64,000 nucleotides of DNA from Patescibacteria group bacterium (GTDB lineage Bacteria; Patescibacteriota; Minisyncoccia; Phycocordibacterales; SBAW01). Location of the stretch: contig JACOWS010000002.1 of NCBI GenBank assembly GCA_016176685.1, forward strand, positions 94,608 through 158,607, in the 5' to 3' direction. This document shows positions 475-60,599 of the stretch, one piece after another. The notes beneath the pieces were generated by a model, which saw only the letters and a list, made by a program, of their open reading frames with translations, was not told the DNA's origin and did not search any database. Numbering within the stretch: position 1 is the stretch's first letter; each line of letters starts with the position of its first letter. A program made the position numbers and the translations under genes.

Positions 475-1212
475 CTACGAGCGCACGTCGGTATATCCTT
501 TAGTATATGGCCTGTCCAATATACTTACCCATATAAAATTAGCAGCGTAGCGGATACCCATACGCACAATACCCTCGTGTGCGAGTCGCCGACCCGAGGT
601 ATACATAGGGAGCTTCCAGGTCCAGCGCACCTCGCCCACCTGCCCCAAGCGCTTGGCGATGTCGGTATCTTCGCCATAAAACGCAATGCGAGTATCAAAA
701 CCGCCTATAGTATCAAGCGCCTCGCGGCGCACCACATAGTTGCCACCCTGAAGCATCGCTCCGAGGTGCAGTACATAGTGCGCGACAAAGTAAAACAGGT
801 AGCCGACTGCATAAAATAATTTTACCAGTGCGCGCTTGGGTAAAGATAGGTCCTTATATATATATGGTCCCGACAGCGCAACCAGATGAGGGTTGTTCTC
901 AAAAACGTCAAGTACCGTGTCGACCCAGCCCAAGGGCAGTTGGGTATCGGCATCTATATGTGCCTCAAGCTCGCCCACCGCCGCACTGTGGCCGGTGTGG
1001 CGTGCCTGTACAAGACCCTTTTTCGGTTCGTCCACCACTTTGACCCCGGGGAAGCTTAGTACTATTTCTTTGGTGCGGTCGGTTGATGCGTTGTTTATGA
1101 CAATAATTTCCGCGTCATAACTACCCCGCGCCAGCTCGCGCCCTACCGACTCAAGGCACCGGGCAATAAGCGCCTCTTCATTATACGCCGGGATAACAAA
1201 ACTAAGCTTCAT
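475..1212 (-). CDS. Glycosyltransferase family 2
   Basis: SFVIPAYNEE, NNASTD, DAD and GED motifs; start placed at MKLSF. Confidence 0.9.
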   Translation of the reverse strand: MKLSFVIPAYNEEALIARCLESVGRELARGSYDAEIIVINNASTDRTKEIVLSFPGVKVVDEPKKGLVQARHTGHSAAVGELEAHIDADTQLPLGWVDTVLDVFENNPHLVALSGPYIYKDLSLPKRALVKLFYAVGYLFYFVAHYVLHLGAMLQGGNYVVRREALDTIGGFDTRIAFYGEDTDIAKRLGQVGEVRWTWKLPMYTSGRRLAHEGIVRMGIRYAANFIWVSILDRPYTKGYTDVRS

Positions 1213-1265: not shown

Positions 1266-1299
1266 AACCTTATTATCCACGACCGTTGTAACTAAGGTT
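1266..1299. repeat. 34-bp quasi-palindromic repeat, type A, downstream of PaaX-like gene 1
   Basis: AACCTTA-ttatcc-ACGACCGT-tgtaac-TAAGGTT; 27/34 identical to 1888-1921 and to 60566-60599. Confidence 0.85.
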
Positions 1300-1304
1300 A
1301 ACGA

Positions 1305-1886
1305 CTAAAGACCGAACCACTGTCGCAACTTCTGATCGTTCTCTATCCCTTCTGCTATAAGATATATAACTCCACCACCAAGTCGTAAATCCACTCTCAA
1401 AAAAGCAACGAGCTCTTCGCAGTCAAATGGACATATCCATACACTATTTTGAATACGCCGGAATCCCGCCTTTTGTAAAGCGAGGCGTAATTTGTCACGC
1501 ATTAGCCGGCGACTTTCCCAAATATCAAACATGACTATCCTCCACTTTCCATCCCACGTTTTTGGAACGCGTATGCGAATATGCTCGGCCGCATGCAACT
1601 TTTCTGCATGCGCCATTCCCTTTTCAGTAAGAGTGGCCGACCAGCCCTGCACGCCTTTCTTCCATTGTACCAGGCCTTTTTGCTCGAGCCGGCGAACGGC
1701 CTGCCTTAGCCGCCGTGTCAGCGTTCCTCTCGTAGATTCTGGGAAAAGATGTTTGCGTAGAACCGCCTCAGGGGCAAGGGCGGCACGCGCGTTTCGGGCA
1801 GTTAAACGAAAAATAGCCAGCGTGATTTTTTGTTGGATTTTCTCCCGTCGCGCGCGCTGTGCTATTTTTTCTTCCAGTTTTTCCAT
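1305..1886 (-). CDS. PaaX-like regulator: winged HTH plus Cas2-like domain, copy 1
   Basis: wHTH (AVRRLEQKGLV...LTEKG) followed by WDGKWRIVMFDI...LQKAGFRRIQNSVWICP, typical of the PaaX central Cas2-like domain. Confidence 0.85.
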   Translation of the reverse strand: MEKLEEKIAQRARREKIQQKITLAIFRLTARNARAALAPEAVLRKHLFPESTRGTLTRRLRQAVRRLEQKGLVQWKKGVQGWSATLTEKGMAHAEKLHAAEHIRIRVPKTWDGKWRIVMFDIWESRRLMRDKLRLALQKAGFRRIQNSVWICPFDCEELVAFLRVDLRLGGGVIYLIAEGIENDQKLRQWFGL

Positions 1887-1887
1887 G

Positions 1888-1921
1888 AACCTTAGTATAC
1901 ACGACCGTTACACTTATGGTT
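1888..1921. repeat. 34-bp repeat, type A, overlapping the promoter of PaaX-like gene 1
   Basis: AACCTTAgtatacACGACCGTtacactTATGGTT; contains a minus-strand TATACT -10 just before the ATG. Confidence 0.85.
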
Positions 1922-2017: not shown

Positions 2018-2644
2018 TTATCGCAGGGCCCACCAAGAAAACCCGGCGAGTATTGCGGCCACGCCGCCGACCGGCGCCAGAGTTCCCACATCCAGCACCC
2101 CGTGGTAGGGGAACCACGTGGCACCCGACAGTTTCATCGGCGCATGCACACCGATGACCACGTGCACCCACAGCCATGCGGCCGTGAGGTATACCCAGAA
2201 TGGATCCGGGTGTGGGGTAGCGAGATAGAAGAGGCCTATTATTGCAAAAGCCGCTCCCATATACACCACGTGCTCCCACCCGGCCGGGGTGAGGTGCCCT
2301 CCGTAGGTCTGCGCCTCGGGGAACTTTAAGCCGCCTTGGATGTAGGTCCAGTGCATCACCGCGCTGAAGACCAGCGCAATGATGCCGATGACCGCAATCT
2401 GCTTGAGGCCCCACCCCGCCCCATACTTGGCCACCAGAGTGGCCAGGAGGATGGGGAGAATAAAGTCTAGATAGGCTGCGGCCCAGTGGCCGAGTAAGGG
2501 GATACCCTTCTGGAACCCCGCCCCTTTGCTCTGCATCTGCGCGACCGTGAGCATGTTGTCACGGTCGGCAAAAATATAACTGGCGAGGACCAGGACGGCG
2601 AACCACCCGTAGACCTCCACCCAAATAACCCAACTTGTGGGCAT
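2018..2644 (-). CDS. Hypothetical multi-pass membrane protein
   Basis: 208 aa, several hydrophobic segments, GAGGAGG Shine-Dalgarno upstream. Confidence 0.7.
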   Translation of the reverse strand: MPTSWVIWVEVYGWFAVLVLASYIFADRDNMLTVAQMQSKGAGFQKGIPLLGHWAAAYLDFILPILLATLVAKYGAGWGLKQIAVIGIIALVFSAVMHWTYIQGGLKFPEAQTYGGHLTPAGWEHVVYMGAAFAIIGLFYLATPHPDPFWVYLTAAWLWVHVVIGVHAPMKLSGATWFPYHGVLDVGTLAPVGGVAAILAGFSWWALR

Positions 2645-11583: not shown

Positions 11584-14500
11584 CTAGAGACCGCCGAGTA
11601 GGCCCTTGAGCACAGAGAACCACCCTGCCTTTTTGGGCGCAGGCGCTTGCTCTACGTCCGGGGCCAATGGCGCCAAAAAGGCGCCCGATGGCGGAACACT
11701 TTTAGGCGTTTTTGGTTCTGACTTTGGTGCGCTCGGCGCCGCGCTATGTACCGCAGCCGCAGCGGCAACCTGCGGCGCCGGTGCGCCAACCACTATAGGC
11801 GCCTTGCCGCCGCAGGCGAGCTGGTTTATTTTGCTCTGCGTCATTGAGTACACTCCTCCGGTGGGGGTCTTGAGCCCTAGCGGGGTCAGAACCTCGGCGG
11901 CATACTTTTGCTGAAATGCATTGACTGCCGCCGCGGTTAATGGCCCGTAGTAGCCGGTGGTCGGCAGGTGTGCATTTTGATGTGCGTTGAGAAAGGCCTG
12001 CAGATTGACCACCTCGGCACGGTTGTTTTTCCTACTACGGGACATAAAGCTGGTAAGGAGCGGCTTGCAATCTACTTCATCATCATCGGCAATCGCAACT
12101 GTGGAAGTACCGAGTACCTCTCCCGCTTCTGTAAACTCTACCTCGCTTGACGCCTCAACCGGCGTAAAGGGGTTGCCGACAACCGGGTGGTTGCGCATAC
12201 CGGTAACGCGGGCGACATTGCGATATATGCCCGGCTTGGTGCTGGTGCCAAACGCTATTGAGTACGAGAGGGTAATGAGGTCGGCCGGTGCCACGGTCTC
12301 GAGGTCCCACGAGCGCGCGTACATAACGCCGCCCGAGGGGTCGTAGAGCGTGTCGGTGAGCAAGCCGTGGTACAGAGCGCCCGCGCTGGTATTGTTTTCA
12401 ATAACTACCTGGTAGTCGACCATCGTGGGGGCGGTGGTTGTGCCTATACTTAGGGTCTTTTTAACCGTGATTTTTGGGTCTGGCGTTGCGCTGTATGTAC
12501 CGTTTGCGGTTATGCCGGCAATGAGTCCGCCACCACCGCCACCGCCTCCACCACCTCCTCCTCCGCCCCCACCGCCATTATTGACGACGGGTGCCGGCGA
12601 AGTGACATCTACTGTAACCACGGTAAATCCCGCCGTGTCTCCGCCTTCAACTGTAGCAGTCAGAGGGATAGTCATTGATGTGCCCGCCGGTGTATCGCCC
12701 ACCTCTGCCGTATAGGTAAACGTGCGCGTCTCGCCCCGAGCCACCCTGCCCAAGTTCCACTTCTTGCCGTTGTCGGTATCCGTTGCTCCGCTATCGGCGG
12801 CAAAGGTAAGCAAATTTTTGTCAAAGTCGGCCTTTAGCGCCACATCCTCCGCGTCGGCATCGCCGCTGTTTGTAACGGTAAAGCGGTACTCCACCGTGGA
12901 GCCCGGCAAGACCGCCCTGGTGGCGTTGGTAAAGGCCTCGAGAGAAAGGTCGGATTGTCCAAAAGCGATATCGCCGCTCCAGTCGCCAAAGATGTTAAAG
13001 ACGGCAAATATCCAGTTGCGCCCGACTATGTTGGTGTTGATGAGGTTTATAACATTGGCTACCGCGTAGGCATTGCCGGTATTGATATATCCGGTACCGT
13101 CTTCTGTCAGAGTTTCGTTTGCGCCAGTTTCTGCAGAGACGTCCACATTGTTTTCAACCACGGCAACATTGGTAGATGATGCTAGGAAGTGCGAGGAGTT
13201 GTAGCAGTTGGAGACGGGTCCCAACTTTTCTTTACAATTAGCATCAGGAGCTTCAGGCAACTCTACCCCGCTGTTGTCACTGGTGACCAAAATAACTGTT
13301 GAGGTGCTGTTTCCCTCGGAGTTCTCCGGAAGTGCCACCCACGAGAGCCCCGCGGGCAGGCCGGTAACATTGCCGCTCCACTCGCCCGAAACGCGGAAGA
13401 AGAAGAATGCCGAGGTACCGCCAAAGTAGCTCCCGTTGGCGTCGGTAAAGGTAGTGGCCGAGCTGTAGGCGTCGCCTGTTTCAACTTCGCCATGACCAAG
13501 ACCCGTGGTGGTAGCCACATTCTCGCCTGTCTCGGCACTTGCGGTAGTGGTACCGACAAAGTTTACATCGTTGGTGTTATTAACCCCGTAGGTGCTCGCG
13601 TTCATCGCCGGGGCAGAGCCGCCGTGGGCAAAAAGCTTCCCGAAGAAGTCGGCATTGGGCAGGGTGATGTTGCCCGCCAAGCTGCCAAAGTTGTTAAACG
13701 AGACAAGCAGGTAGCTTGAGTTGATGATGTTGGTGTTGACCACGTTAAGCACGTTGGCCGCGGCATAGGCGTCGCCGGTGTTTATAGAAGCACCGCCGCT
13801 CTCGGTTGAGGAAGCCACATTCTCCCCCGTTGAAGCGCGCACCAGGACGCTGTTGGTTACGGTGGCGGTGTTGTCGTTTACCACGTTAAGCTCGCTGGCA
13901 TTGAGGCAGGTTAAGAGGGTGCACTGCGGCTCGCCGGTTGTCTCGTTGACCGTTTGGGACGCGCCCGCCTCGCCGTCAAAGAAATAGGAGAGGTTGAAGT
14001 CGCGCAGGTCAAACCCGCCGCCGAAAAGCTGATTCAAAAAGAGGATGAGCCCGTAGGAGTTGAAGATGTTGGTGTTGACGAGGTTTATGACATTGGATGT
14101 TGCGGCGGCGTTGCCGGTATCAATGGTCGAGGTGGCTACCCCTCCATCGGCCATGTTCTCGCCCGTTGTCGCCAAGGTCTCGGACTCGCTCCCCAGCTCG
14201 GCCTCGTTTGTGGTAGAGGCGGTAAGGTTGGAGGAATTCATTTCCTCTCCCGGCGCGTCGCACAGCTCATCCGAGTCTTCCGAGCAGGTGTCTGCAACAT
14301 TTATAATGTTGGTGTTAAGCTCGTTGTCGACGGTTGTCGAAGCGGTGGCATCACCGGTGACTATCTCGCCGCCCACAAGACCGCCCGTGCCGTCGGTGGA
14401 GGTGGCTATGGTGGTGTTTAATTCGTCCGGCAGTATTTCATCGGTACTGGTGGCTGTGGTTGTAGGAGTGGAGGTAGCCACTGGAGCCGGCTCATCCGCG

Positions 14501-14724
14501 GGAGGTGGCGGCAGTTCGCAGGAATCACCGTTCCAGGAGCCGCCGTCTGTAGTGCACTGCACATCGGCGCATGGCTCGGCATCTTGCTCGCCCGGCACAT
14601 TTGCGCACACGTCAACCGGAGGTGGAGCTTCTTCAGCCCGTACGACGATAGACCCGGCCCCGGCCGCAAAGATGAGAAAAAGGCCCGTCCATAGAAAGTA
14701 GCGCGATGCAGAGGATATGGTCAT
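11584..14724 (-). CDS. Large secreted surface protein: TGxN/TGDA repeats, DUF11-like Ig domains, C-terminal peptidoglycan-binding domain
   Basis: Signal peptide; 4-5 repeats; VEYRFTVTNSG...WNLG; poly-Gly linker; LQAFLN...TGYYGPLTAAAVNAFQ. Confidence 0.8.
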   Translation of the reverse strand: MTISSASRYFLWTGLFLIFAAGAGSIVVRAEEAPPPVDVCANVPGEQDAEPCADVQCTTDGGSWNGDSCELPPPPADEPAPVATSTPTTTATSTDEILPDELNTTIATSTDGTGGLVGGEIVTGDATASTTVDNELNTNIINVADTCSEDSDELCDAPGEEMNSSNLTASTTNEAELGSESETLATTGENMADGGVATSTIDTGNAAATSNVINLVNTNIFNSYGLILFLNQLFGGGFDLRDFNLSYFFDGEAGASQTVNETTGEPQCTLLTCLNASELNVVNDNTATVTNSVLVRASTGENVASSTESGGASINTGDAYAAANVLNVVNTNIINSSYLLVSFNNFGSLAGNITLPNADFFGKLFAHGGSAPAMNASTYGVNNTNDVNFVGTTTASAETGENVATTTGLGHGEVETGDAYSSATTFTDANGSYFGGTSAFFFFRVSGEWSGNVTGLPAGLSWVALPENSEGNSTSTVILVTSDNSGVELPEAPDANCKEKLGPVSNCYNSSHFLASSTNVAVVENNVDVSAETGANETLTEDGTGYINTGNAYAVANVINLINTNIVGRNWIFAVFNIFGDWSGDIAFGQSDLSLEAFTNATRAVLPGSTVEYRFTVTNSGDADAEDVALKADFDKNLLTFAADSGATDTDNGKKWNLGRVARGETRTFTYTAEVGDTPAGTSMTIPLTATVEGGDTAGFTVVTVDVTSPAPVVNNGGGGGGGGGGGGGGGGGLIAGITANGTYSATPDPKITVKKTLSIGTTTAPTMVDYQVVIENNTSAGALYHGLLTDTLYDPSGGVMYARSWDLETVAPADLITLSYSIAFGTSTKPGIYRNVARVTGMRNHPVVGNPFTPVEASSEVEFTEAGEVLGTSTVAIADDDEVDCKPLLTSFMSRSRKNNRAEVVNLQAFLNAHQNAHLPTTGYYGPLTAAAVNAFQQKYAAEVLTPLGLKTPTGGVYSMTQSKINQLACGGKAPIVVGAPAPQVAAAAAVHSAAPSAPKSEPKTPKSVPPSGAFLAPLAPDVEQAPAPKKAGWFSVLKGLLGGL

Positions 14725-14862: not shown

Positions 14863-16974
14863 TTACAACTCGCAACTTGTCAGCACATTGAAGCCTCCGC
14901 CAGCATTGCAGGTGTCGGTGCCTCCCTGGCCGTTTATCTTGTCGTTGCCGCCCTGCGCCATGATGGAGTCGTCTCCGCCACCCGCATCGACCTTATTGTT
15001 GCCGTCGCCGGCGTCTATGGTGTCGGCACCGGAGCCAGTCGTAATTTTGTCGTTTCCTGCACCTGTGGTAACGGTATAGCCGCCATCGCCCGCAATGATA
15101 GTGTTGTTACCGAACATAGAGAAGAGTGTGCCGCCGCCGTTGCCGACAGTAACTTTGTCGTTGCCGGCACCGGCATCTACCACTGCATCGCCGTCGCCGA
15201 GGTCTACCTTATCGTTGCCGCTACCAAGGCAGACGATAAAGTTGCCGTCGCCGCCCGTAACCTTGTCGTTGCCGCCAAGGCCGACAAACATGGTCATGGA
15301 TGCGAGCACTACTTTGTCGTGTCCGGCAGTGCCGTTTTGGAGCGTGTAGCCAGCCGGTGCCACGCCCGGAGTCTCGCACGCCTCTGCCAAAGACGGCGGC
15401 GCGGGAGGTGTATTGTCCACCGTAACCTTCCAGGCATCACTCCACGGGCTCATGTTGCCGTCGTTATCAACCGCGCGCACGTGCCAATAGTAGACTCCCT
15501 CGGGCGTGCCGGGGGTCGGGATTTCAGACACAGCCAGTGGGCCGGAAGTGTATACCGGGGTCGTAAACGAGCCGTCCGGGTTTGTCGCGGAAGAGTTGGA
15601 CGATTGATAGCGATAGGTCATCGGCAATGCCGGGTCGGTGACATCTGTCCAGTCGATTTTGTCCAGCGCGGCCGATGTTAGCGTGCTGTTGTCTGCCGGA
15701 GAAAGGTGCACCGGCGCGGGGACGCATATCTTGTTCCACACAATAACGTACTTGTCGCCGGTGATGCCGGTGAAGCTCGGGACAGTGAGTGACACGGGCG
15801 CACCTGCCGCCTCAACAGGCGTGTCGCCGGTGCTGTAGCCAACTAACGCATATGGCTGGCCGGTACTGCAGTCGGCGCCAACTACCGCGCCGCCTGTTAC
15901 CTCGTAGGTACTGTAGTCGGCACCCGAGGTCATCTCGGAGGTGATTGCCTGGTAGGGAGTGGGGTCGCCGTTAAAGCCGTCGGCATCGAGGTCGTACGAG
16001 CCGCTTCCTGCGCCGATGTTTGCGGCATCCCAGGTTGCCGACATAGGGAATGCGGATGAGTCCGCACTCACTGCCGTTGCCTGTGCCCCGTCAATAAACT
16101 TGTTGATGGTGACGGTCACTGGAGGCATAGGGCCAGAAAGGAGCGAGAGGTTGTCGAATAGGAAGCCGTTACCCGCCGTATCCGGAGCCGCCCCGCCGCC
16201 AGTGCGGAAGATGAGGTCGTCGGTCGTGCGCGGACTCTGTTCCGCGGATGCTTCGGAGTCAAAGCGGAAGTAGTTTTCCCAAGTGGTTCCCGTATGTACC
16301 AACACGCCGTCTATGTAGATTTTGACAATGTCGTTGGAAGCACTATCAACATAGTCAATTACGAACTTTGCCGAATGCGTTGTCGAGCGAGAAAGGCCTG
16401 TTGCAACCGTTGTCGGCGAGAAAGTTGCCGGGTTACCTGTGCCTGGCGTGTCATAGAAGATAACGTCAATACCGCCCGGCTCGTCGGAGAATCCTAGATA
16501 GCTCATACGCGAGCCGTCGCCGCGGTCTGGAGATACAGATACAAAGAGTCCCGGCTGTTGGGTTGATTCTGTAGAGGCAAAGTCAAACTGTGCCTCAAAG
16601 TGCGGCTGCCTGGTGCCGCCGGACATACCGCCGCTGGTAGAATCAACCTCGCCCGCTTCGTCTATTAGAGATTTAGAAAAGGTCATGTCGCCAAAACAAC
16701 CGCTCGTGACTGCGTTGGAGATGCGCAATACCTTCGAGCCGAATTCTACGAAACCGTAGGAGTTTGATACAACCGCGTGGTCATATATTGCACAGCCGGA
16801 TCCTACACTGCCGAGGCTAGACCACCCGTCTTGTCCGTTGACCGTTCCAAGCGTAAAGCTCTCGAAGTCGGTGGCGGTGCTGTCGGCAGATGCGTAAGAG
16901 AACAAGGCAAGGGCGCCGAGCAGTATCGCTACTGTTGTGAGAGTTCCTGCGCCGATTGATACTGTTTTACTCAT
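14863..16974 (-). CDS. Secreted protein with beta-sandwich domains and C-terminal RTX-like Ca-binding repeats
   Basis: Signal peptide from MSKTV; YYWHVRAVDNDGN...W fibronectin/Ig-like motif; multiple GxGNDK nonapeptides. Confidence 0.8.
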   Translation of the reverse strand: MSKTVSIGAGTLTTVAILLGALALFSYASADSTATDFESFTLGTVNGQDGWSSLGSVGSGCAIYDHAVVSNSYGFVEFGSKVLRISNAVTSGCFGDMTFSKSLIDEAGEVDSTSGGMSGGTRQPHFEAQFDFASTESTQQPGLFVSVSPDRGDGSRMSYLGFSDEPGGIDVIFYDTPGTGNPATFSPTTVATGLSRSTTHSAKFVIDYVDSASNDIVKIYIDGVLVHTGTTWENYFRFDSEASAEQSPRTTDDLIFRTGGGAAPDTAGNGFLFDNLSLLSGPMPPVTVTINKFIDGAQATAVSADSSAFPMSATWDAANIGAGSGSYDLDADGFNGDPTPYQAITSEMTSGADYSTYEVTGGAVVGADCSTGQPYALVGYSTGDTPVEAAGAPVSLTVPSFTGITGDKYVIVWNKICVPAPVHLSPADNSTLTSAALDKIDWTDVTDPALPMTYRYQSSNSSATNPDGSFTTPVYTSGPLAVSEIPTPGTPEGVYYWHVRAVDNDGNMSPWSDAWKVTVDNTPPAPPSLAEACETPGVAPAGYTLQNGTAGHDKVVLASMTMFVGLGGNDKVTGGDGNFIVCLGSGNDKVDLGDGDAVVDAGAGNDKVTVGNGGGTLFSMFGNNTIIAGDGGYTVTTGAGNDKITTGSGADTIDAGDGNNKVDAGGGDDSIMAQGGNDKINGQGGTDTCNAGGGFNVLTSCEL

Positions 16975-17005
16975 AATTGGTTTTACTAAATTAATAACTT
17001 GTTTG

Positions 17006-17437
17006 TTAGCGGGTGCGCGCGGCGTCCCTGGTTGAACAGCTGGATGTAGAGAGTCTGTCGCACTGCGTCTCCGGCTCCGGCGCCGGCTCATCGCCCCCAT
17101 CATCGCCGCCATAGCTGGTGTCTGGGGTGTTGGTTGGCCCTATGTTGACCACATACACCTCCACGTGCTCGTCGCCGGTGATGACCGTGCCGCCCTCGTT
17201 GCCGCCGGAGTCGGCGGTGCCGCTCGTTGAGTTTGAAATGTTGCCTGCACTTGGATTAATCGGAGCCGGAGTAGGAGTGCTCGGGGGAGCGTCGGTGGAG
17301 GGGCTCCCCGACCCGCCGCGGTCGCGTACCGAAGCGTCCCTGACCTCTGCCTGCGCGCTAAAGGCAAGCACATACATCGCAAGAATGGCGAGCGCCACCG
17401 CGACTACTTTTGTGGTGACCGAAAGTGTTTTAGTCAT
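17006..17437 (-). CDS. Small secreted protein with one TGD-type repeat
   Basis: Signal peptide; NISNSTSGTADSGGN...GTVITGD. Confidence 0.7.
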   Translation of the reverse strand: MTKTLSVTTKVVAVALAILAMYVLAFSAQAEVRDASVRDRGGSGSPSTDAPPSTPTPAPINPSAGNISNSTSGTADSGGNEGGTVITGDEHVEVYVVNIGPTNTPDTSYGGDDGGDEPAPEPETQCDRLSTSSCSTRDAARTR

Positions 17438-31824: not shown

Positions 31825-38703
<6,879 letters not shown>

Positions 38704-39676: not shown

Positions 39677-39714
39677 TTTACCATATATACCGCTATAGCA
39701 TTGTTTATGGTAAA
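39677..39714. repeat. 38-bp quasi-palindromic repeat, type B, downstream of PaaX-like gene 2
   Basis: TTTACCATA-tatacc-GCTATAGC-attgtt-TATGGTAAA; 35/38 identical to 40324-40361. Confidence 0.9.
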
Positions 39715-39727
39715 TACCTTGTTGCAT

Positions 39728-40315
39728 TTATTCTAAATCAAAATGCTGTTTAAGGTGTTTATCGTTCTCTAATCCTTCCGCAATGATATATAGAATGCCC
39801 GACCCAAGCTTTAGATCACTCCGTATGAATGCAATAAGTTCTTCGCAGGGATACGGGTGTACCCAGACGCTGTCTTGCAACATATAAAATCCAGCTTTCT
39901 TAAGGATGTTTCGCAACCGCTCTCGAACTTGCTTGCGTTTCTCCCACACATCAAAAATGACCACCCTCCATTTTCCATCCCATCGACGCGGCTGGCGAAT
40001 TTCTATACGACGGACAACCTCAAGCCGTTCGGCAAATTTCTCACCCTTTGTGGTCAATAGTATTCTCCACTCCTTCCCTTTTCCTTCTTGCTGAACAAGA
40101 CCACGAGACTCTAGACGTCTTACAGCTTGTTGGATACGATACCCAGGCTTACGTTTTTTTGCGAGGTCTGGATCAATGCGCTTTAACAGCCTGAGAGTGT
40201 TTGGAGCTAGTAGCACCATAGAAAGTGCGGCCGCACTGTACAGAGCAAGGACGAGGCCATCCTGTACTCGAACTCGTTTAGTAATTTTTCGGCTTCGCTC
40301 CTCTAACTGCCCCAT
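39728..40315 (-). CDS. PaaX-like regulator: winged HTH plus Cas2-like domain, copy 2
   Basis: AVRRLESRGLV...LTTKG; WDGKWRVVIFDV...LQDSVWVHP. Confidence 0.85.
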   Translation of the reverse strand: MGQLEERSRKITKRVRVQDGLVLALYSAAALSMVLLAPNTLRLLKRIDPDLAKKRKPGYRIQQAVRRLESRGLVQQEGKGKEWRILLTTKGEKFAERLEVVRRIEIRQPRRWDGKWRVVIFDVWEKRKQVRERLRNILKKAGFYMLQDSVWVHPYPCEELIAFIRSDLKLGSGILYIIAEGLENDKHLKQHFDLE

Positions 40316-40323
40316 CACTCCAG

Positions 40324-40361
40324 TTTACCATATATACCGCTATAGCATAAATTATGGTAAA
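40324..40361. repeat. 38-bp repeat, type B, upstream of PaaX-like gene 2
   Basis: TTTACCATA-tatacc-GCTATAGC-ataaat-TATGGTAAA, 8 nt before the ATG. Confidence 0.9.
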
Positions 40362-52347: not shown

Positions 52348-53574
52348 ATGGAAGAACGCGATCATAAAAAGTTGGGGCCGGCACTGGGCCTCTTTTACAT
52401 AGACCAAACGGTTGGCAAGGGGCTCCCTATGTTTTTACCAAAAGGGGCGATAATCAAACGCGAGCTTGAAAAGTTTGTGGTGGAAGAGGAAACCAAACGC
52501 GGCTACCTACACGTTATCACCCCCGACCTGGCGCGGTTGGAGCTATACAAAAAAAGCGGCCACTACCCGCACTACAGAGACTCCATGTACGCGCCCATTG
52601 TGATAGACGACGAGGAGTTTATGCTCCGGCCGATGACCTGCCCGCACCACTTCCAACTCTACCTGTCTCGACCGCACAGCTACAAAGAGCTCCCGATGCG
52701 CATTGCCGAGCTGGCACAGCTATACCGCTACGAGCAGTCCGGCGAGCTGATGGGCCTCCAGCGCGTACGCACATTTTGCCTGGCAGATGCGCACATTATC
52801 TGCGCGAACGAAGAGCAGGCAATGCAGGAAATGAGCGACGCGCTCGACCTCATCGAGCATATGGCGGGAGTATTTGGGCTCAAACTGGGCGAGCACTATC
52901 GTTACCGCCTGTCGCTTGGCGACCGCGCTAACACCGAAAAGTATTACAAAAACGACGCCGCGTGGGAAAAAGGCGAGGACATGCTGCGCCGCGTGATGCA
53001 AAACCGCGAATGCGAGTTCGAGGAGGCCAAAGACGAGGCCGCGTTTTACGGCCCCAAGGTGGACATACAGATGAAGAACGCCAATGGCAAAGAAGACACG
53101 GCGTTTACCTGCCAATACGACTTTTGCATGCCGGACCGCTTTAACCTCACCTACATCGGCGAGGACGGCAAAGACCACCGCGCGTTTGTGGTGCACCGCT
53201 CCTCCATAGGCGCCATAGAGCGCAGTATGGCGTTTTTGATAGAGCACTATGCCGGGGCCTTCCCCACGTGGCTCTCGCCCGTGCAGGCGCGGGTCTTGCC
53301 TATTGCCGACGCGCACAAAACCTTTGCAAAAGATGTTTTAAAACAATTGAAGGATGCCGGTATCCGCGCCGATATAGACGAGAGCAACGAAACGCTGGGT
53401 AAAAAAGTGCGCGAGGCAAAGACGGAAAAGATCCCCTACCTTTTGGTAATAGGCGACAAAGAAATGCAGGAGCAAAAAGCGGCGCTGGAAGGCCGCGACC
53501 ACGGCAAGCTCGGGGTACTGCCTGTGGCCGACATTATTTCAAAACTCAAAGAAGAAATAAAAAACCGATCTTAG
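52348..53574 (+). CDS. thrS: Threonine--tRNA ligase lacking the N-terminal TGS/editing domains
   Basis: Starts at RDHKKLG; LRPMTCP, YRYEQSG, AAFYGPKVD, HR...ER. Confidence 0.93.
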   Translation: MEERDHKKLGPALGLFYIDQTVGKGLPMFLPKGAIIKRELEKFVVEEETKRGYLHVITPDLARLELYKKSGHYPHYRDSMYAPIVIDDEEFMLRPMTCPHHFQLYLSRPHSYKELPMRIAELAQLYRYEQSGELMGLQRVRTFCLADAHIICANEEQAMQEMSDALDLIEHMAGVFGLKLGEHYRYRLSLGDRANTEKYYKNDAAWEKGEDMLRRVMQNRECEFEEAKDEAAFYGPKVDIQMKNANGKEDTAFTCQYDFCMPDRFNLTYIGEDGKDHRAFVVHRSSIGAIERSMAFLIEHYAGAFPTWLSPVQARVLPIADAHKTFAKDVLKQLKDAGIRADIDESNETLGKKVREAKTEKIPYLLVIGDKEMQEQKAALEGRDHGKLGVLPVADIISKLKEEIKNRS

Positions 53575-53617
53575 AGCTAAAGAACCGATCTTAGAGGTAT
53601 TACTGAGTCGCAACAGT

Positions 53618-53657
53618 ATGTAATATTTACTACACTATAGTTTCTTATTTATTACAT
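53618..53657. repeat. 40-bp quasi-palindromic repeat, type C, downstream of PaaX-like gene 3
   Basis: ATGTAATA-N8-ACTATAGT-N8-TATTACAT; 20/23 identity with 54283-54322 over the right-hand part. Confidence 0.7.
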
Positions 53658-53697: not shown

Positions 53698-54280
53698 TTA
53701 GCCGAGTCTGAAGTGGATGCGCAGAGCCCGATCGTCTTCCACCCTATCAACGATCAGATACAAGACATCCCTACCCAATCCAAGCTCCGCTTTGAGTAAA
53801 ACAACAAACTCTTCACAATTATATGGATATATCCATACGCTATCCTGGAGTCGCACAAAACCGATACCAGTAAGTATTGCCCGCACCTCGCCACGGAGTG
53901 CGTCTTTCAGGGATATCAAAAATCACAACGCGCCACTTTTTATCCCATTTTTTGGGTTTTTTTACCTTGTAGCCGCGAAGTTCCCATTGAGCTACACAAT
54001 TCTTTCCTTTTTTAGTTAGTACAACAAAGGATCCCCGACGGGTCTTTTCCATCATAAGAAATCCCCCTGCGACGAGTCTGGAAATTGCTTTTTTTGTTTG
54101 ATATTTTTTCTGCCGTTCGTACTGCTTCAAAAAAGGTTTTAGCATTGATAGAGCGTTTGGGGCTATGAGTGCTGTGGAGATTACTCCAACCGCAGCTACC
54201 GAGCCGAGTACGGCACGCCGGACAGTGGTCATGCGCATTTTTTTCCGCAGGTCTTTCTCAAGAGATACAGGTGGTTTCAT
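53698..54280 (-). pseudogene. PaaX-like wHTH/Cas2-like gene, copy 3, frameshifted near 53900
   Basis: WDKKWRVVIFDIPER in ORF 53840-54280; GFVRLQDSVWIYPYNCEE in the overlapping frame 53698-53919. Confidence 0.8.
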
Positions 54281-54282
54281 AC

Positions 54283-54322
54283 TTGTAGCGGATAACCTAC
54301 TATAGAATTTTATTTATTACAA
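54283..54322. repeat. 40-bp repeat, type C, upstream of PaaX-like gene 3
   Basis: TTGTAgcggataacctACTATAGaattTTATTTATTACAA, 2 nt before the ATG. Confidence 0.7.
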
Positions 54323-60565: not shown

Positions 60566-60599
60566 AACCTTAATCGTAACGACCGTTATAGCTAAGGTT
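60566..60599. repeat. Solo copy of the type A 34-bp repeat between pheT and gyrB
   Basis: AACCTTA-atcgta-ACGACCGT-tatagc-TAAGGTT; 27/34 identical to 1266-1299. Confidence 0.8.

Follow-up and report, generated by a model that had tools for sequence, protein, structure and literature searches.

The genes of a family of short Patescibacteria proteins, predicted to resemble the repressor PaaX without its ligand-binding domain, are in most cases bracketed by two copies of a DNA site private to each gene, and the best explanation of this arrangement, to which we give roughly even odds (about 0.5), is that the protein clamps DNA, represses its own gene and also occupies distal sites at the 3' ends of genes. 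The window, meaning the whole stretch of 64,000 nucleotides that was analysed, belongs to the 550-kb genome (98% complete) of an ultra-small groundwater bacterium. It contains three of the six paralogs in that genome (Table 1), of which one is frameshifted and whose identity to paralog 1 or 2 never exceeds 46%.

Table 1. Positions in the window of three family genes, their predicted cognate sites and associated elements.
Feature	Position	Strand	Remarks
Paralog 1	1305..1886	-	193 aa; winged-helix and Cas2-like domains, predicted PaaX without C-terminal domain
Paralog 1 upstream cognate site (predicted)	1888..1921	.	covers putative promoter; 1 nt before ATG
Putative -10 box TATACT	1894..1899	-	inside paralog 1 upstream site, 7 nt before ATG
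Paralog 1 downstream cognate site (predicted)	1266..1299	.	5 nt past stop
Third, lone copy of paralog 1 site	60566..60599	.	pheT-gyrB gap, about 22 nt past pheT stop
Paralog 2	39728..40315	-	intact, downstream of trmD
Paralog 2 upstream site	40324..40361	.	
Paralog 2 downstream site	39677..39714	.	
Paralog 3	53698..54280	-	frameshift within Cas2-like domain
Paralog 3 upstream site	54284..54321	.	promoter-side arm degenerate
Paralog 3 downstream site	53619..53656	.	

At paralog 1, the 34-bp repeats described in the original prediction were reproduced in their coordinates, spacing and identity (27/34 positions, same orientation), and the consensus derived at that time has three matches in the window as compared with a mean of 0.00 in 100 shuffles. 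The promoter of paralog 1 appears to have a leaderless layout. The proposed unit of one gene plus two sites stands with regard to the flanking sites but is incomplete, as lone cognate copies occur at the 3' ends of other genes; the lone copy behind pheT is kept in close relatives (L363, L346, L380).

The window contains several further features. A 208-aa membrane protein without Pfam or NCBIfam match (window 2018-2644, minus strand) is present in 13/80 genus genomes and is encoded in several of them directly upstream of the same glycosyltransferase. At window 1101-1174, a contig found in 3/4 runs is missing 72 bases of the glycosyltransferase gene; this contig, with only 34 letters on its short side, probably stems from another organism. 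RNA polymerase beta and beta-prime form a single ORF of 2,292 aa (31825-38703, minus strand), a type of fusion known from a few lineages, and two large surface-type proteins were seen, one with DUF11 and peptidoglycan-binding domains (11584-14724, minus strand) and one with calcium-binding nonapeptide repeats and Ig-like domains (14863-17112, minus strand).

The PaaX_M domain was matched in 27/27 aligned members (E=3.9e-20 for paralog 1, whose CRISPR_Cas2 match is weak) and PaaX_C in none of these 27, which confirms the earlier statement that the C-terminal domain of PaaX is lacking. Paralog 1 scores 44.5 bits against the PaaX model TIGR02277 (cut-off 264.55) and passes the cut-off of the cas2 model TIGR01573 with 31.3 versus 24.5 bits over about 40 residues. 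In the predicted structure (pLDDT 87), a three-helix winged helix with a long helix at residues 53-69 is followed by a linker and a ferredoxin-like domain, and the best structural match obtained with Foldseek is E. coli PaaX (8a39, E=4.5e-5). According to this model, the protein is PaaX without the ligand-binding domain, and since the sensing domain is missing, the family is not counted as a PaaX member; by analogy with PaaX and Cas2 it would form dimers. All of 106 members have an FD aspartate and a QSV motif, both of Cas2 type, that E. coli PaaX lacks, and the Cas2 aspartate to which the former is equivalent by motif is reported to be catalytic or metal-binding (PMC9510766). The HUH/Y1 transposase family gave no match in 27 members, the family has no invariant histidine, and Cas1 (PF01867) gave no match in the genome. 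Cas2 counts in Patescibacteria are probably too high as a result of this family, whose members pass the cut-off of the NCBI cas2 model. A hydrophobic N-terminal stretch (19-residue window, hydropathy >1.8) was found in 89/125 members, at about residues 20-45 after a basic N-terminus, and paralog 1 has no clean stretch of this kind. The family comprises 1,054 clusters at 50% identity (E up to 1e-30) with a patchy distribution (30/80 genus genomes and 27/121 sampled phylum genomes), the GC3 of its genes is low (0.42-0.55 versus a genome median of 0.62), and the neighbours identified around its genes and sites are housekeeping genes. Of 1,736 candidates for longer fused forms none scored, which is weak evidence.

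Site pairs are widespread in the family. The comparison of upstream with downstream flanks in homologs, as originally suggested, identified pairs by a fixed pair score at 126 of 150 genes with enough flank (80 genes plus a second set of 70 without duplicates and 2 edge cases) as opposed to 0/120 ordinary control genes. Several of the failures are broken or truncated genes, and in the phylum sample 13/28 loci pass, mostly from the closer subfamily. The sites are 34-38 bp long. Their centre is an 8-bp dyad in which C(-3)/G(+3) never varies; an AT-rich spacer separates it from the arms, which lie at offsets of 11-18 bp and have a palindromy of 0.79-0.91. Mismatches show no bias of G.T over A.C (71:84 and 80:74), which argues for recognition of double-stranded DNA. 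The two flanking copies are more alike in direct than in inverted orientation, in the spacers direct identity is higher than palindromy, and the centre dyad is inverted between the copies in 14/126 pairs. Among 55 genes with a site centre 16-20 bp before the start, a -10-like box is present at one offset in the promoter-side half of 38 upstream sites as compared with 11-13/55 in the other three halves, and the family's -10-like boxes mostly lie 6-7 nt before the start codon. The upstream copy may represent an operator on a leaderless promoter, and autorepression of the paralog gene is likely because this copy covers the gene's own -10 box, a position that supports the autoregulatory part of the earlier reading. 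Six pairs of closely related elements have diverged at 60-72% of fourfold positions, which puts silent codon positions close to saturation, but retain 25-34/36 bases at both sites, and in L052 and L049 the upstream and downstream copies change together. At L272, two near-identical copies of a second site type lie 80 bp apart, 50 and 130 bp past the downstream site.

Sites and proteins also covary. In a sample of 59 disjoint nearest pairs, changes in the centre go with changes at two residues of the Cas2-like domain, D131 and N147 (family-wise P 0.017 and 0.030 after divergence control), changes in the arms track L47, T55 and Q62 in the winged helix (P 0.047, 0.11 and 0.22 under the same control), and changes in the spacer track no residue. 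Arm covariation is thus weak after correction, and the expected link between recognition residues and arm sequence was recovered for L47 and is weak for T55 and Q62, the centre instead tracking residues 131 and 147. A DNA-only search of metagenomes for paralog-1-type sites returned 18 adjacent genes, of which all 12 with 35% or more identity have R59 and Q62 (these are kin and not independent); Q62 is not seen in the remaining six, which are more distant and lie next to the same arms. Taken with the pair counts, the centre and arm covariation supports the original prediction that each paralog has its own co-evolving site pair, and suggests that the centre may be read by the Cas2-like part and the arms by the winged helices.

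Clear site pairs were found at 5/6 paralogs of the genome (26/38 to 35/38 identical, the upper value at paralog 2 and the lower at paralog 3), the sixth pair being weak. The layout at paralogs 2 and 3 is indeed that of paralog 1, but their repeats are not wholly different in sequence as had been assumed: an ACCWTA arm is common to the sites of paralogs 1 and 2, whose centres differ, and a CTATAG centre is common to those of paralogs 2 and 3, the latter gene being frameshifted. Lone cognate copies, one or two each, exist for four paralogs, namely 1, 2 and those on contigs C2 and C5, and a lone copy for paralog 2 lies outside the window at G000:C6:69828. A 20-bp tandem duplication (window 53553-53592) runs across the stop of a class II tRNA synthetase gene and adjoins the downstream site of paralog 3.

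Away from family genes, 80 lone loci were analysed (84 loci, 4 inside long ORFs being left out; ORF calls are mechanical and the loci include kin). A stop lies 60 nt or less away from 46 of them and a start from 9. In co-directional gaps, 30/40 are nearer the stop, and convergent gaps are favoured over divergent ones by 21 to 5 (background 24:25; P 0.012). A hairpin of -12 kcal/mol or stronger is found behind 8/19 close lone sites. Six of the 80 are within 30 nt of a start codon, among them those of uvrA, uvrC and tatD, and could be ordinary operators. The neighbours of lone sites include pheT, gyrB, map, uvrA/B/C, ruvB, pyrG, metG, lysS, tatD, groEL, tig, msrA, pyrB, murG, gltX and rarA; further loci in relatives, named by recognition of their sequence, are presumably ndk, tsf, rpsJ, rplC, recJ, rnhA, secA, rplY, fusA, smc and rnr. 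One to three lone copies were found per paralog. Lone sites fetched from genomes that have a scored element number 40; for 22 of them a resident paralog matches at 0.77 or better (foreign medians 0.23-0.41), and for 18 none does. Arm-complementary lone sites, judged by eye for two centre patterns only, are present in 14/30 gene-bearing versus 4/50 gene-less genus genomes. Behind pheT, a site occurs in 2/11 gene-bearing genomes, each of a different resident type (a third is degenerate, by eye), and in 0/19 gene-less ones; where a further gene lies between site and gyrB (L346, L380), the site is still found next to the pheT stop. In most genomes a hairpin directly follows the rarA stop. Among 30 loci, only that of G001 has sites there, three different ones arranged end to end at 36 and 38 bp; G000 and G020 have one site each.

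Some lone sites form arrays or have no evident partner. Mixed-type arrays, in which two or three sites lie end to end at a spacing of 36-40 bp away from any family gene, were observed in G001 (L153:2428-2538 and L152:2443-2515), G008 (L159:1486-1598) and G064 (L151:2517-2589), and the same doublet is present at two loci in G001. Serial insertion beside existing sites was set aside as the source of such arrays, as only 1/126 elements has a different-type site nearby. A lone site after tRNA-Leu in G000 (C7:37490-37526, centre C7:37508) matches no resident paralog, and for the lone sites L478:2501-2537 (G089), which fills the metG-tatD gap, and L479:2481-2517 (G088) no matching gene was found in assemblies that, including G000, are 89-98% complete. 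A palindrome in G021 was discarded as a terminator after a ribosomal-protein gene.

In the course of evolution the module has been acquired, lost and moved. In a quick tree, the paralog-1 clade (11 rows, SH-aLRT 99) occupies four named loci and four unshared ones. The loci map-ndk, tsf, rplY, smc-rnr and pheT-gyrB are filled in some genomes and carry a lone site in others, often with different arm types; pheT-gyrB in L344 is filled with the same arm type. The upstream membrane gene is present at 13 loci, of which two are filled (G000, G080) and four, empty versions of the paralog-1 locus in which the same glycosyltransferase comes next, carry neither gene nor site. Phage carriage was ruled against by viral contigs, which held 1 related locus and 0 site matches, and the one tyrosine and 2-3 serine recombinase matches in the genome lie elsewhere than the family loci. 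In G081 (L104:1499-2364), two identical sites surround a 196-aa membrane-type non-family gene (no NCBIfam match at 1e-45), where G080 has one site (L103:412-520); two other short palindromes stand beside the site in these genomes, one with its centre inverted between them.

Here we propose that a PaaX-type dimer without ligand-binding domain, with the fold predicted by model and search, would bind the 34-38 bp double-stranded dyad in two parts, its Cas2-like dimer contacting the 8-bp centre and its two winged helices the arms 11-18 bp out, as the covariation suggests. Bound to the upstream copy over its own -10 box, the protein would shut its own promoter, so that its level is held fixed; taken jointly, the model up to this point appears highly probable. 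The downstream and lone copies lie just after stops, often before a terminator hairpin, and protein bound there may serve as a roadblock or insulator where transcripts end, and may in addition tether a loop to the promoter copy. This proposed 3'-end role is the weakest step, and our confidence in it falls a little short of even. The module would be long-resident at each locus and be gained, lost and relocated by ordinary host recombination and gene transfer, and its loss between the direct repeats could leave a lone site that is kept while the cognate protein is present. In favour of the clamp, the site length matches the PaaX site TGATTC-N27-GAATCA, by analogy with which the family may function. 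The fold match, the pair counts, the arm palindromy without G.T bias, the -10 boxes, the covariation by domain, R59 and Q62 in the kin next to paralog-1-type sites, the conservation of both sites in diverged elements, the 3'-end position of lone sites (at pheT also with another gene before gyrB) and the 22 lone sites with a resident match also count in its favour. Several observations speak against it: the lone sites without a matching scored paralog, the site-holding gene-less genomes, the weak arm covariation together with the six distant genes that do not show Q62 beside the same arms, the limited number of close lone sites with a hairpin and the six near starts. In addition, the invariant FD aspartate and QSV motif would not obviously be needed by a pure binder, and no host benefit was identified.

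An alternative that is unlikely but deserves serious weight is a minimal mobile cassette, in which the protein synapses the two sites, the Cas2-type aspartate or a host recombinase frees the gene with one of its sites as a circle of about 620 bp, and re-entry occurs at lone sites, which would be both footprints and landing pads. The patchy presence, the scattered loci of the paralog-1 clade, the low GC3 and the co-occurrence of filled and lone states, including the same arm type at pheT-gyrB in L344, are in line with such movement, as are the excess of direct identity over palindromy in spacers, the joint changes of upstream and downstream copies and the identical site pair around a non-family gene in G081. 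This reading keeps its weight because the Cas2-type aspartate, whose Cas2 equivalent by motif is described as catalytic (PMC9510766), is invariant. However, the empty paralog-1 loci have no site; outer and inner half-site palindromy are alike, for which reason an attB/attP hybrid signature was rejected; and the Logan contigs of 4 runs, all from one study, show no excision junction at the sites, contigs being prone to drop rare variants. A cassette that actively excises, as considered in the original prediction, has thus found no support so far. Paralogs within the genome are also far from near-identical and seem long-resident at their loci, the duplication in G081 spans about 110 bp (by eye) and is longer than the site, different-type sites abut lone sites but hardly ever elements, and there is only one viral match. 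A related and rather unlikely possibility is a Cas2-based self-spreading unit, in which a 190-residue winged-helix-Cas2 protein cuts or synapses its own 36-bp site by means of its Cas2 dimer and the invariant aspartate, moves its gene, occasionally other genes, and lone footprint-sized sites into stop-terminator gaps, and builds the mixed arrays; if true, it would constitute a REP/RAYT-like system built on Cas2 and show Cas2 recognising a defined DNA sequence in a setting other than CRISPR.

A conventional regulon, with lone sites serving as operators for the promoter of the gene that follows, for example a DNA-repair or replication gene, as the start-proximal sites and the neighbours gyrB, uvrA/B/C, ruvB and rarA might suggest, is improbable: most lone sites are nearer stops, the 21 convergent gaps hold no promoter, the pheT site does not follow gyrB, the neighbours extend to pheT, map, pyrG, metG, lysS, groEL, tig, msrA and pyrB, and the protein has no sensing domain. 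The hydrophobic N-terminal window of many members and the close spacing of different paralogs' sites in arrays would fit a chromosome organiser or membrane tether, with bound proteins bridging dispersed sites or holding them at the membrane via the N-terminal helix, but this appears quite improbable given that paralog 1 has no clean hydrophobic stretch, that the gene is absent from 50/80 genus genomes and that sites per genome are few. Very improbable is a CRISPR relic or RNA-hairpin system whose repeats are cut or bound as RNA by a Cas2-type ribonuclease. The passed TIGR01573 cut-off, the invariant aspartate and the location that downstream and lone sites would have in 3' UTRs point in this direction, whereas the missing Cas1 match, the upstream copy preceding the putative transcription start and the covariation of arms with the DNA-recognition helix point away from it, and an RNA or single-strand hairpin role was rejected for lack of a wobble bias, there being no G.U bias on the sense strand.

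No published description of the family or its site system was found in the literature searched, which covered few subscription journals. What is new from this window comprises the lone third site at 60566-60599, the 3'-end counts, the mixed arrays, the absence of a site from the empty locus and the aspartate by which the family differs from PaaX. Because the sites are readable straight from sequence, the family offers many natural protein-site pairs with a putative two-part code, and may represent a ready set of small orthogonal repressors as well as a test of sequence reading by the Cas2 fold. In addition, the lone sites at transcript ends point to control, or to selfish spread, in bacteria with barely known gene regulation.

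Among known systems, tyrosine-recombinase cassettes, with loxP, FRT or dif-type sites or as integron cassettes, share with the family 34-bp sites, arms around an 8-bp centre and a direct repeat around one gene; unlike in these, the centre of the family is a conserved dyad, at times inverted between copies, and the arms vary with the enclosed protein rather than a host recombinase. DNA-looping repressors with auxiliary operators, such as LacI, lambda CI and DeoR, likewise use two cognate sites several hundred bp apart, one of them on the promoter, whereas the second site of the family abuts the regulator's own stop and there is no inducer domain. With CRISPR Cas2 (PF09827, TIGR01573) the family shares a ferredoxin-like domain with a conserved first-strand aspartate, but by context it is not CRISPR Cas2, as the domain is fused to a winged helix, no Cas1 was found in the genome and the repeats are gene-specific pairs and not an array. 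The Cas2 dimer is described as a DNA yardstick in Cas1-Cas2 (PMC9510766). RAYT genes with their REP/REPIN sequences, in the account of PMC2817692, are also flanked by two co-evolving cognate palindromes with extragenic copies that follow the gene, but there the lone copies number over 100 as compared with 1-3 per paralog, and the family differs in the direct orientation of its copies, the missing HUH-type invariant histidines, the signature of double-stranded recognition and the promoter inside the site. The closest likeness is to E. coli PaaX (PDB 8a39, 3l09; TIGR02277), which combines a winged helix with a Cas2-like middle domain, binds the widely spaced inverted repeat TGATTC-N27-GAATCA (about 39 bp) and is reported to repress its own promoter by steric hindrance (PMC9493321). 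The family would work like PaaX at its own promoter, yet it lacks the C-terminal phenylacetyl-CoA-sensing domain (193 versus 316 aa), its sites have a conserved centre that may be read as well as the arms, a second site follows the stop and lone sites lie at other genes' 3' ends, and it comprises several paralogs with private specificities that carry the Cas2-type FD and QSV motifs.
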